This document shows positions 181 to 3,950 of a stretch of DNA of 8,306 nucleotides, piece by piece. Each line of letters begins with the position of its first letter. Within the stretch, counting starts at the first letter, position 1. Origin of the DNA: Candidatus Micrarchaeota archaeon (GTDB lineage: Archaea > Micrarchaeota > Micrarchaeia > Anstonellales > Bilamarchaeaceae); assembly GCA_037440825.1 (NCBI GenBank), contig JBBITJ010000045.1, forward strand, positions 1-8,306. The letters are read 5' to 3'. The translations under genes and the position numbers were made by a program. The notes beneath the pieces are model-generated. The model was given only the letters and a program-made list of their open reading frames with translations. It ran no database searches and had not been told where the DNA came from.

Positions 181-879
181 CTAATCTTGTTCTAAAATAG
201 AGTTAGAATTTCTAATATCTTTTATGGAATCAAGTTTTTTAAAGTACATGCGCGGATTATAGAGCTCAAAAACGGAGCAAGGCGGTCTCTTGTCCAGGAT
301 TGCCATGGCCTCAGGGCCATAAATATCAAGCACTATGCGCACGAACTCCGCATATGCGTAATGGACCGGGTTGAGCGTTGCGAGAATCTTGGTCGCCACT
401 TCCGGTCCTGCTTCGCTAGAAATGAATTTGTGCTCGAGCAGGGTCGCATGCCCTTCCAATATAGCCCTCTTTACCGGATTCGACGCATCAGCAAGGATGG
501 AATCCATCATCACGAAATGGTCGCCCTCATGCACGAAAAGCGCATCCATGATCAGGGCAAAACGACTCTTGAGTGGACCTGCAAACAACTCTTCATCGAA
601 AATGTTGTTCAGCAGTACCACCAAGGCGTTTCTGCCGTCTATCCGGAGCGCGGCTGCTGCAGGCCTAGGTTCAGAGCGATGCCGACTGCCCTTGTCGAAC
701 TCGTATGTGACGACGATCGCAGGCGCATCCATCTTCGCCTCTGAATACGCATAGCTGATGCCCTTGTGTATTGCTTCTTCGAGCCGATCGTGCTTGAGCC
801 CGAATAACCTGAGACTGCGTTGGGCATACTTGAGTTCCATGGGACGAACCGCGCTTATAATTCGCGGGGAATCAAACAT
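181..879 (-). CDS. Putative zinc-dependent metallopeptidase (zincin; resembles Zincin_2/DUF2342-like proteins)
   Basis: 232-aa ORF with HEGDH (HExxH), a downstream LEGHA (third-ligand E), then Y..FV..V...G and P...E...P..Y patterns typical of this zincin group. TATA box sits 25-32 nt upstream. Confidence 0.7.
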   Translation of the reverse strand: MFDSPRIISAVRPMELKYAQRSLRLFGLKHDRLEEAIHKGISYAYSEAKMDAPAIVVTYEFDKGSRHRSEPRPAAAALRIDGRNALVVLLNNIFDEELFAGPLKSRFALIMDALFVHEGDHFVMMDSILADASNPVKRAILEGHATLLEHKFISSEAGPEVATKILATLNPVHYAYAEFVRIVLDIYGPEAMAILDKRPPCSVFELYNPRMYFKKLDSIKDIRNSNSILEQD

Positions 880-1713: not shown

Positions 1714-2193
1714 ATGGATACGAATGAAAAGCCGTATTATCTGCTGAGCCCGCTGAGGGTGGTCCTTGTGAGCGCGAGCAGCAAGGGGAAGGACAATTTC
1801 ATGCCCGCGAGCTGGTGCTTCCCGCTCTCGTTCGAGCCCAAGCTGTTCGGAGTCGCGATTTCGCCGAAAAGATTCACGCACGGGCTGATAAAGGAGAGCG
1901 GGGAATACGTGATAAACATACCGGGTTCCAACCTGCTGGGCAAGATCGTGGAATTCGGAAGGCTTAGCGGCAAGGACTGCGACAAGTTCGAAAAATCCGG
2001 GCTCACGAAAGAGAAGTCCAGGAAGGTGGCAGCGGTTTCAATAAAGGAGTGCCTCGCGAGCATAGAATGCAAGGTCGTGGACGTGCTCAAAACTGGCGAC
2101 CACGACGTATTCGTGGGAGAAGTGCGAAATATAAACCTGCGCGGGAAAGGCCCAGGAATATATCAGAAAAACAGCGAGCTGGTCGAGATCTAG
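1714..2193 (+). CDS. Flavin reductase family protein (DIM6/NTAB-like)
   Basis: MDTNEKPYYLLSPLRVVLVS...NFMPASW...EP....VAI...RFT...I..SGEYVINIP...SG...DKF...ECKV...GDH..FVGEV. This is the real C-terminal part of the 820..2193 ORF. Confidence 0.9.
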   Translation: MDTNEKPYYLLSPLRVVLVSASSKGKDNFMPASWCFPLSFEPKLFGVAISPKRFTHGLIKESGEYVINIPGSNLLGKIVEFGRLSGKDCDKFEKSGLTKEKSRKVAAVSIKECLASIECKVVDVLKTGDHDVFVGEVRNINLRGKGPGIYQKNSELVEI

Positions 2194-2336
2194 TTGAGCC
2201 AATTAGGATCGACCGCAGTAGACGGGTTGCCGGATTGCACGGAAAAGAGCTTTTTAAGGCGCTTCATCTGGCTTTGGGGCATTACCGCATCTTGCTCGGA
2301 TTTCTTGTGTTCCTTGTCCTTTTTCTCCTTCTTCAT
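2190..2336 (-). CDS. Small basic hypothetical protein, 48 aa (MKKEKKDKEHKKSEQDAVMPQSQMKRLKKLFSVQSGNPSTAVDPNWLN)
   Basis: Not in the ORF track. ATG at 2336, TAG at 2190-2192, 4-bp overlap with the convergent flavin reductase gene. TTTATATA (2366-2359) lies 23-30 nt upstream. Confidence 0.6.
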   Translation of the reverse strand: MKKEKKDKEHKKSEQDAVMPQSQMKRLKKLFSVQSGNPSTAVDPNWLN

Positions 2337-2434: not shown

Positions 2435-2743
2435 ATTTTTTCAGGGTTTTTAGGGTCCGAGTAACCTCACGGTGTCATGCACGCCCAGCACGACCTAGGA
2501 TCGCTTGCGCTTACCCTCTTTAAGCTGGAGGCATATCCGCTTGGTACGAATTTCTCGCGTGTGGCAGGTCATTCGTCTTTTTTTGCCAACATGCAGTTTC
2601 AAACCCCTTCCTAATGCATGCAGGCATTTAAAGCAACCACAGAGGCGAAAACCGCAGACCAATGGTGTCCAGACTGACTGGAGCTTTTGGACCAAACCAC
2701 GGGCCCTGCTCGGTTTACCCGAACCCTGAAAAAATATTTCAGG
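2435..2743 (-). ncRNA. Putative BHB-flanked structured ncRNA, copy 1 (predicted excised/circular form 2451-2714, 264 nt)
   Basis: 14-bp perfect outer stem (2722-2735 with 2435-2448), BHB GGGU-AAA / ACCC-UAA, inner stem CCGAG/CUCGG, and covariation with copy 2. Confidence 0.7.
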
Positions 2744-3005
2744 AATATACTTCGTTTCATTCAGGCAATTGCCAGAAGCCACTTCGACTTTTCGAGACTT
2801 TTAGGGTCCAGGTAACCTCACGGTGTCATGCACGCCCAGCACGACCTAGGATCGCTTGCGCTTACCCTCTTTAAGCTGGAGGCATATCCGCTTGGTACGA
2901 ATTTCTCGCGTGTGGCAGGTCATTCGTCTTTTTTTGCCAACATGCAGTTTCAAACCCCTTCCTAATGCATGCAGGCATTTAAAGCAACCACAGAGGCGAA
3001 AACCG
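2461..3005. repeat. Tandem direct repeat, period 351 bp; identical core 2461-2654 = 2812-3005
   Basis: Base-by-base comparison gives 194 bp with no differences. Diverged similarity extends over about 2405-2745 versus 2764-3090. Confidence 0.97.
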
Positions 3006-3090
3006 TAAACAAATGGCCCTTAGTTGTCCAAGGCTTTGTCCATACCACTTGTCCTGCCTGGTTTTCCCAAGCCCCGAAAAGTTTCAGGGG
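2787..3090 (-). ncRNA. Putative BHB-flanked structured ncRNA, copy 2 (predicted excised/circular form 2802-3062, 261 nt)
   Basis: 14-bp outer stem ACUUUUCGGGGCUU/AAGUCUCGAAAAGU (two G-U pairs that form only on the minus strand), BHB GGGA-AAA / ACCC-UAA, inner stem CCAGG/CCUGG. Confidence 0.7.
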
Positions 3091-3096
3091 ATTATT

Positions 3097-3135
3097 ATCT
3101 GCAACGAAACATTTTTAATGCTATCTTTTTTCGCA
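3097..3135 (-). promoter_or_regulatory. Candidate promoter of the RNA pair, overlapping a 14-bp shared motif
   Basis: Minus strand CGAAAAAAGATAGC-ATTAAAAAT (3119-3111), about 25-30 nt upstream of copy 2, followed by GTTTCGTTGCAGAT (3110-3097). Confidence 0.45.
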
Positions 3136-3204
3136 AAATCTACGACGTAGCCAGAAACTGCTTTATGCCGTTTTTCGGCCATCAGACGGTTCGAAAAGCG
3201 CACT

Positions 3205-3804
3205 TTATTTGGTCAGCGAAGACAGCAATTCGTACGCGCGCGAGGTGTCCGCCTCCCCTATCACGAGGAGCGTGTCCGTGTATGAAGAGATGAACTCGTT
3301 GACGTTTATGCCCTCCGCGGCCAGGAGATGGAGCACCGTGGATATCACGCCCGGAGTATCCTCTATCGCAGGGGTGCTCGAGAGTATGAACAGGTTGAGG
3401 TTCTCCTCGACGGAAAGTATGCTCTTGGAGCGCATGGCCTTGGCGGCCTCGCGCTGCTCCGCGATATACGTATAGAAGTGGCCGCTCTTCACCGACGACA
3501 CGGCCTCGAGCTCCAGCGGCGCGGAGGAGATCAGCACCACGACCTTGTTCCTTATGCTTATGGACGTGTCCTTGAGGACTTCGAGCACCTTGCCCTCCAT
3601 CTCAGTCTCCTTCTTCCGTATCCTGGCGCCTATGCGCATGAGCGCGGCCTTCACCGCATAGAAGTTCGACTGGGAGCGGAATACCTCCTTGCACAGCTTG
3701 CGCGCGAGGCGGCTGTAATTCACCAAGTCATATTTCAGCATCTCCTTTATGAACGGCCTGCGCTTCACGTAGAGCCACACGAGCTCGCTCGTCTTTTCCA
3801 TCAT
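3205..3804 (-). CDS. ACT domain-containing protein (N-terminal helical domain + C-terminal ACT; putative amino-acid-sensing regulator)
   Basis: N-terminal P....L...LVNYS.LAR motif and C-terminal ACT motif TPGVIS......LA.EGINV.E..SSYTDT..VI. Start at ATG 3804 (or 3801), 28 nt downstream of the start of TTTAAA (3832-3827). Confidence 0.85.
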   Translation of the reverse strand: MMEKTSELVWLYVKRRPFIKEMLKYDLVNYSRLARKLCKEVFRSQSNFYAVKAALMRIGARIRKKETEMEGKVLEVLKDTSISIRNKVVVLISSAPLELEAVSSVKSGHFYTYIAEQREAAKAMRSKSILSVEENLNLFILSSTPAIEDTPGVISTVLHLLAAEGINVNEFISSYTDTLLVIGEADTSRAYELLSSLTK

Positions 3805-3826: not shown

Positions 3827-3950
3827 TTTAAATCCGTTTCGTTGCAGATTTGTCCCAAATGGAGCGTTTTTGTTTTTTATGCCCGAAATGCAACGCAATA
3901 TTTAAAAGCGTGAAAACGCCCATGTCCAGTATTCTATTGTTTAGGTGGGA
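3827..3950. promoter_or_regulatory. Divergent promoter region ACT gene / argG
   Basis: TTTAAA at 3827-3832 and TTTAAAA at 3901-3907, each preceded in its own direction by TGCAACG (3846-3840 minus; 3889-3895 plus). AGGTGG SD precedes argG. Confidence 0.6.

Follow-up and report, generated by a model that had tools for sequence, protein, structure and literature searches.

The archaeal genome G000 (Candidatus Micrarchaeota) very probably carries a stand-alone gene whose RNA has a covarying fold and is processed into a circle, and the making of a covalent circle is well supported, as it is seen in assembled RNA contigs from relatives. The processing route is already known; the RNA itself is uncatalogued. 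We propose that a TATA promoter of its own drives minus-strand transcription of the gene, probably into a two-unit precursor, and that the ends of each unit form a bulge-helix-bulge (BHB) in which the tRNA splicing endonuclease would cut both bulges. RtcB would then seal the inner 261- or 264-nt piece into a circle, the presumed product, which, as covariation shows, folds as a four-way junction with a pseudoknot locking arms 2 and 3. Ligation would also free a CCC loop, the docking of which on a GGG in arm 2 may complete the fold.

The locus, its processing motifs and its promoter

The window, that is the whole stretch of 8,306 nt that was analysed, is the complete contig C45 of G000, a genome of 875 kb that is 95.6% complete. 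On its minus strand, between a flavin-reductase-like gene and an ACT-domain gene (beyond which lie argG, argH, DUF192 and FBPase genes), sit two RNA units with a period of 351 nt. Positions 2461-2654 of copy 1 are identical to their counterpart in copy 2 (2812-3005), and the copies differ in their closing stems and arm 1. Such identical cores beside closing stems that differ with compensation suggest either gene conversion or a sweep in the very recent past; cross-pairing of copy 1 with copy 2 is also made weaker by these differences. The spacer between them (2736-2786, minus strand) holds a second CCUGAAA leader remnant and no TATA-like box. As G002 and G004, which share with G000 the RNA site beside the ACT gene, have one copy there, the tandem is recent; and because most relatives carry a single copy, it reflects local duplication and does not characterise the RNA family. 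Thus, the tandem genes of the original prediction stand as two copies in G000, but not as a property of the family.

Pairing of the ends closes each unit: between an outer and an inner stem, a 4-bp helix separates two 3-nt bulges that lie on opposite strands, and on either strand the helix precedes the bulge, as EndA requires. Copy 2 reads GGGA-AAA-CCAGG...CCUGG-ACCC-UAA, with an A.A mismatch within the 4-bp helix, and copy 1 reads GGGU-AAA-CCGAG...CUCGG-ACCC-UAA, with a C.A mismatch adjoining the helix; both motifs, with one nearby mismatch each, lie where they had been predicted. The 5' half in copy 2 (3062-3068, minus strand, like all RNA features below) consists of GGGA and the bulge AAA, and the 3' half, found together with the 3' outer strand at 2787-2807, of ACCC and the bulge UAA. 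In copy 1, the 5' outer strand and 5' half (GGGU and AAA) occupy 2714-2735, and the 3' half with the 3' outer strand occupies 2435-2456, followed by a pyrimidine-rich tail that may be a terminator. EndA cuts after the second bulge base. By this rule, copy 2 is predicted to be cut between 3063 and 3062 and between 2802 and 2801, and the excised RNAs measure 261 nt for copy 2 (2802-3062) and 264 nt for copy 1 (2451-2714), the same lengths and coordinates as in the original prediction.

Taken as stand-alone evidence, the BHB shape was discarded, since a loose genome-wide scan for it returned 18 instances in G000 and 10, 9 and 1 in three shuffled genomes, which is not a significant difference. The motif rises above chance because 28 homologous rows conserve it, because the structure covaries and because RNA contigs span the junction. 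Both halves were present in 28 of 28 rows, which bears out the expectation that homologues would keep the motif, with the helix perfect in 17 rows and carrying one mismatch in 11. Of the 12 pairs of the outer stem, 10 or more were retained in register in 16 rows, and in 20 when a shift of one base was allowed; in 8 of the 28 this stem was short, interrupted or truncated where the contig ends. Folding gave z-scores of -4.1 and -4.4, with equally stable shuffles in 0 of 100 and 0 of 200 cases. As for the enzymes, G000 encodes EndA-domain proteins of 392 and 159 aa (their type judged by length only) and an RtcB in a frame of 983 codons; the RtcB match is split within this frame (G000:C12:21585-24377), probably by an intein. 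A broad-specificity endonuclease has been reported for ARMAN archaea (PMC7714728), and by analogy the relaxed BHB motifs of the family would suit such an enzyme.

Upstream of copy 2 lies a putative archaeal promoter (3111-3127, minus strand), in which a BRE-like purine run is followed by the TATA box TTAAAAAT at 3118-3111, so that transcription would start near 3090-3093. The bases preceding this TATA box resemble those of the 5S gene promoter. A TATA-like box was found 45-49 nt before the core in all six other same-genus copies and, in a permissive search, at 18 of 21 loci. Since such a box precedes copy 2 but not copy 1, both copies are likely to be transcribed as one dimeric precursor. The sequence TTTCG after the TATA box was considered as a signal and dropped, as it occurs at 17 of 1173 TATA-like sites, without enrichment. 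Positions 3069-3090 of copy 2 comprise the leader CCCUGAAA and the outer processing stem's 5' strand, with which the leader may form an alternative local hairpin. In both copies the leader (3069-3090 and 2721-2745, minus strand) has the same sequence as the outer stem's 3' strand and could sequester the 5' strand until the 3' end is made; in other genera there is a separate leader hairpin.

Several further elements were seen in the window. A 22-nt inverted repeat (3097-3118 and 3828-3849) brackets the ACT-domain gene, and the RNA promoter has the same 14 bases after its TATA box as the plus-strand promoter before argG, possibly a common operator. The contig starts with three imperfect AT-rich repeats of about 28 nt (27-54, 133-160 and 191-218), and a 232-aa ORF without a Pfam match (181-879, minus strand) has similar-looking genes at the same site in G002 and G004.

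Circular forms in environmental RNA and the conserved fold

A small share of the stretch occurs in 24 sequencing runs from 20 studies, 20 of these runs being recorded as RNA, and four (X2, X3, X4 and X6, from four studies) were aligned to positions 2740-3300 at 80% likeness. The RNA evidence therefrom consists of assembled contigs of relatives, 80-99% alike, which carry no strand, start or level relative to other genes. In these four metatranscriptomes depth was confined to 2797-3081 (in pieces, 2801-3063) and was zero in the 15 bins outside, where the missing flank cover may reflect divergence of the flanks; within the circle, the depth of X2 ranged from 37 to 506. This analysis revealed back-joints at the expected ends. 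In X2, three contigs run back to 2801 at a depth of 135; X3 holds back-joints to 2801 from 3060, 3057, 3037 and 2896; X4 holds one to 2801 from 3017, with 47 letters between; and in X6 loose contig ends span the junction. The junction letters in X2, X3 and X6 are GG-TT-AGGG (plus strand), as predicted, in place of the four Ts that the genome carries on either side, and, the bulges being A-rich, they fit equally a cut after the second bulge base and both cuts shifted by one. X2 holds the copy-2 type of junction and X3 the copy-1 type, so that the back-splice search proposed originally recovered both types in contigs of relatives, with cover ending at the circle ends. A search for the joined form in DNA gave 35 loose-pattern matches in 28 of 99 genomes of the taxonomic family, about the rate of the reversed control, and none of them was the family junction. 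The junction contigs of relatives, the conserved BHB and the genes for EndA and RtcB support the proposal that the product is a circular RNA.

The alignments describe a fold made of the outer stem, the BHB helix, a 7-bp closing stem (P1) and three arms, which together form a four-way junction; in the 261-nt circle of copy 2, P1 is followed by arm 1 with an A-rich bulge, arm 2, and arm 3 with a GNRA tip. About 45 positions are near-invariant, many of them unpaired. In an alignment of 19 sequences, 89.4% of cells were paired and 65 of 82 pairs showed two-sided change, levels reached by 0 of 500 shuffles and compared with 31-43% in slid controls; because the structure was derived from the same, related 19 sequences, the shuffles overstate the significance. 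Mean column identity is 58-60% within one family. The covariation check proposed at the outset thus supports the fold, as well as the claim that the stems of the two copies differ yet stay paired, since the closing stems differ with compensation and the terminal sequences covary.

The original prediction had recognised neither the RNA family, nor the single copy in most relatives, nor a pseudoknot. In all 19 sequences, 6-10 bp can form between the internal loop of arm 2 and that of arm 3. Among rows from outside the genus, 7 pairs are kept in full in 17 of 17 rows, 3 of the 7 with two-sided change; among same-genus rows, offset from the former by one base in register, 6 pairs are kept in full in 8 of 8 rows, 2 of the 6 with two-sided change. 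In copy 2 the 5' strand, CUUUAA at 2979-2984 in the arm-2 internal loop, pairs with UUAAAG at 2874-2869 in that of arm 3; the corresponding strands of copy 1 lie at 2633-2628 and 2523-2518. Two divergent copies lie outside alignments A5/A6 and A8, namely a 203-nt copy in G008 and a 327-nt copy in G119. The G008 copy (L059) lacks about 60 nt of arm 2, possibly through an assembly slip, near-identical metagenome copies (L122 and L136) being whole, and in the G119 copy (L057) additional hairpins mark the bulge of arm 1 and the tip of arm 2 as tolerant sites.

On ligation, the BHB helix's 3' strand becomes a 7-nt loop, R-CCC-Y-A-W. Because the CCC is kept in 27 of 28 rows, because the partner strand that is discarded carries 5 uncompensated mismatches, and because the pre-16S processing helices of three relatives (two of them read by eye) carry other sequences, the junction-loop sequence is, judging by sequence comparison, under selection in the mature circle. 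A candidate partner lies in the tip loop of arm 2, where A-GGG (2955-2959 in copy 2) is near-invariant. Its GGG could form three invariant G-C pairs with the junction CCC in 17 of 17 rows, and a fourth, adjacent pair changes from A-U to G-C in one genus and is broken in 4 of 17 rows. We therefore put forward, tentatively, that the CCC might dock on the GGG of arm 2, a contact possible only after splicing; pairing with another RNA or protein binding would also explain the conservation of both. Two likenesses were dropped: the arm-2 tip of G000 resembles the double T-loop, a motif of RNase P or of the L1 stalk, a likeness seen in G000 only and not across the 28 rows, and the junction reads like what are presumably 1.5 telomere-type repeats, in a genome in which no reverse transcriptase was found and at bases that sit in a stem.

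Identity and distribution of the RNA family

Searching Rfam with the linear genomic sequence of the window returned 0 matches at E<=10, and the 12 homologue loci, also searched as linear sequence, gave 2 chance matches, both outside the RNA. Together with ARAGORN, which found no tRNA in the window, this agrees with the earlier claims that there is no host tRNA or rRNA and that hallmarks of tRNA, 5S, SRP and RNase P RNA are lacking. We rejected an SRP RNA, linear or permuted, because the helix-8 motif occurs in 0 of 28 circles with the junction included and a normal SRP RNA lies on contig C17, and an RNase P RNA, because CR-I/CR-V occur in 0 of 28 circles and the genome has its own on C9. A tRNA, tRNA intron or tmRNA was set aside on the ARAGORN result and a T-arm word in 1 of 28; an rRNA or rRNA fragment on the Rfam result, a 5S RNA located elsewhere and the column identity, the 23S being absent from the G000 assembly; and a C/D or H/ACA guide sRNA on the lack of Rfam matches, with the C box in 0 of 28 circles and CUGA in 11 of 28. 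The raiA, OLE, ROOL and GOLLD RNAs had no Rfam match in the window or the 12 homologue loci. A coding circle was likewise rejected, as the lengths of 250-264 nt are not in one frame and the longest stop-free runs are 35-72 codons. No TROVE/Ro60 gene was found in G000. In the 16S rRNA of G003 (L171), a match of 1882 nt has insertions near its 3' end, suggesting rRNA introns.

By BLAST, the RNA was found in 4 of 7 other genomes of the genus; since the remaining three, 83-97% complete, are without it, it is probably not essential. A first covariance model found it in 18 of 99 genomes of the taxonomic family and a second, R2, in 19 of the 99, covering 10 of 23 genera and 22 copies, with a maximum of two per genome. 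R2 found none in 77 genomes from the order's other families and none in 124 other-family genomes of a phylum sample, in filtered searches that scored 13-20 candidates per genome and that distant members may escape. An ends-only pattern over 401 genomes yielded 8 extra matches, none matching R2, and no diverged copy was found beside DUF192 in 18 loci. When a genome collection was searched, the RNA model accepted 11 of 17 pattern matches, all from Candidatus Micrarchaeota, and 0 of the 6 bacterial ones; 6 of 26 metagenome pattern matches were family members, later-found members fitting the same model. None of 5 viral contig matches belonged to the family, and plasmid and phage collections held no match to the RNA.

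At 8 loci in several genera the RNA gene lies behind DUF192, itself usually behind FBPase, and at 6 loci it is followed by what we take to be a diphthine synthase gene. This conserved locus (FBPase-DUF192-RNA-diphthine-synthase-like gene), shared across several genera, points to an RNA gene that was for the most part vertically inherited, with moves, duplications and losses; G003 and G006 each have two copies at unrelated sites. No partner protein was found; DUF192 was rejected as a coupled one, since 30 of the 34 genomes tested have it, including many that lack the RNA. At loci L042, L045, L046, L051-L053, L055 and L056, DUF192 remains upstream of the RNA gene, also where a different, presumably GlpX-like FBPase precedes it.

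Possible roles and comparison with known systems

By analogy with raiA or OLE RNA, the circle may quite possibly be an abundant, non-coding and nuclease-proof RNA that serves host proteins as a binding scaffold or sponge and has been lost in some lineages; we lean towards this role without much confidence. It is unlikely that the circle is instead a ribozyme or guide RNA, for example a catalyst of RNA processing or a guide acting through the variable arm 1 or the CCC loop, even though a compact, pseudoknotted fold with a GNRA tip, an A-rich bulge and its many unpaired near-invariant positions would suit one, and arm 1 does differ between the two copies. That variation preserves pairing and therefore leaves no free guide, no significant complement of the RNA was found in the genome (best E 0.09), and RNase P, SRP, C box and hammerhead motifs were found in 0 of 28 circles, and a group I P7 word and a T-arm word each occurred in one circle of the 28. 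A further and rather improbable role is that the CCC, held in the BHB helix of the precursor and freed by ligation, would kiss the GGG of another molecule to build a protein-free multimer or cage. If that were so, archaea would have a wider class, as yet undescribed, of genes dedicated to ornate circular RNAs that the tRNA splicing machinery makes, and this RNA would represent it in DPANN.

Other explanations deny the circle a role of its own or attach it to another entity. As the best-known BHB circles are the circular intermediates pre-16S and pre-23S (PMC7714728, PMC12918454), and as contigs are blind to internal nicks, so that the circle could be nicked later, it might be a by-product or intermediate, with the ligated outer exon or a re-linearised form doing the work, as for most pre-rRNA circles. 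We regard this as improbable: the outer stems are free in sequence and length and without RNA-contig cover, so the exon is not the part selected, and the junction loop is conserved. A selfish element is very unlikely, whether it be a non-autonomous replicon or retro-element in the form of circular RNA, retrozyme- or viroid-like, that exploits the splicing of its host, or a MITE bounded by terminal inverted repeats. The RNA is patchy (19 of 99 genomes), it occupies unrelated sites in G003 and G006, its RNA contigs show many variants at high depth, and the ends of copy 1 form a perfect 14-nt inverted repeat. However, no genome has more than two copies, a common locus is found in several genera, and the terminal sequences covary rather than stay conserved; moreover, every genomic copy keeps the promoter-side leader and BHB halves that are absent from the circle, the joined form was not found in DNA, G000 has no detected reverse transcriptase, and there was no phage, plasmid or viral match. 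Least plausible of all is a 5'-UTR intron or leader of the small gene downstream. This unannotated, lysine-rich ORF of 48 aa (2190-2336, minus strand) follows copy 1 on the same strand, has homologues at the same site in G004 (49 aa) and G002 (45 aa), and would have a precedent in a BHB intron in a Haloferax 5' UTR (PMC7714728), but it occurs at no more than 3 of 21 loci, a TATA-like box of its own lies some 25 nt ahead of its start, and the genes downstream of the RNA vary and are often convergent.

Although dispensable genes are few in the genome-reduced Micrarchaeota, the dedicated gene for a circular RNA that we favour is kept, duplicated and expressed in part of one family. Its exact junctions and covarying fold allow direct tests, and the RNA offers a natural scaffold for stable RNA circles. 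Our literature search, in which subscription journals were poorly covered, found no published account of such a family. The intergenic regions of all of GTDB are clustered in a 2026 preprint (10.64898/2026.10.21.760802) that makes no mention of BHB, DPANN or Micrarchaeota in its accessible text, and the family may sit unnamed in its supplements.

Among structured RNAs, the large bacterial raiA motif, OLE, ROOL and GOLLD RNAs (PMC12968392, PMC12286853) are similar in how they might work, being abundant, multi-helix and pseudoknotted, with an open function and possible kissing-loop contacts; as portrayed in the available text of these sources, they differ in being linear, bacterial and without a BHB. 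Likewise circular, non-coding and pseudoknotted are the omega-RNAs of archaeal IS200/IS605 elements (PMC12558985), which, in the accessible part of that report, lack a BHB and lie at IS elements; no tnpB-like gene was recognised among the ORFs of the window, nor was one recurrent among neighbours. The closest parallel in gene organisation and maturation is the permuted circular SRP RNA of Thermoproteus tenax, a stand-alone intergenic gene with a TATA box and a short leader (Plagens et al. 2015, PMC4731332). Common to both are a BHB formed by leader and trailer, a circle that is the mature RNA and a loop, made by ligation, that matters (PMC4731332). Unlike that RNA, the Micrarchaeota circles lack helix 8 (0 of 28), adopt a pseudoknotted three-arm fold and occur in tandem copies, and they were not found to be a permuted form of any catalogued RNA, in a motif search that crossed the junction and an Rfam search on linear sequence. 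Known BHB circles of archaea comprise tRNA introns, pre-16S and pre-23S rRNA in circular form, mature circular 23S rRNA and the 5' UTR intron of Haloferax HVO_1309 (PMC7714728, PMC12558985, PMC12918454). With these the Micrarchaeota RNA shares the BHB geometry, the presumed enzymes and a 7-nt junction loop. In contrast to those circles, as these sources describe them, it has no host tRNA, rRNA or mRNA, and it is the excised part that is conserved and the flanks that are disposable. A circular RNA built for the purpose would thereby be added to the substrates of the tRNA splicing machinery, besides tRNA, rRNA, one SRP RNA and the rare introns of mRNA.
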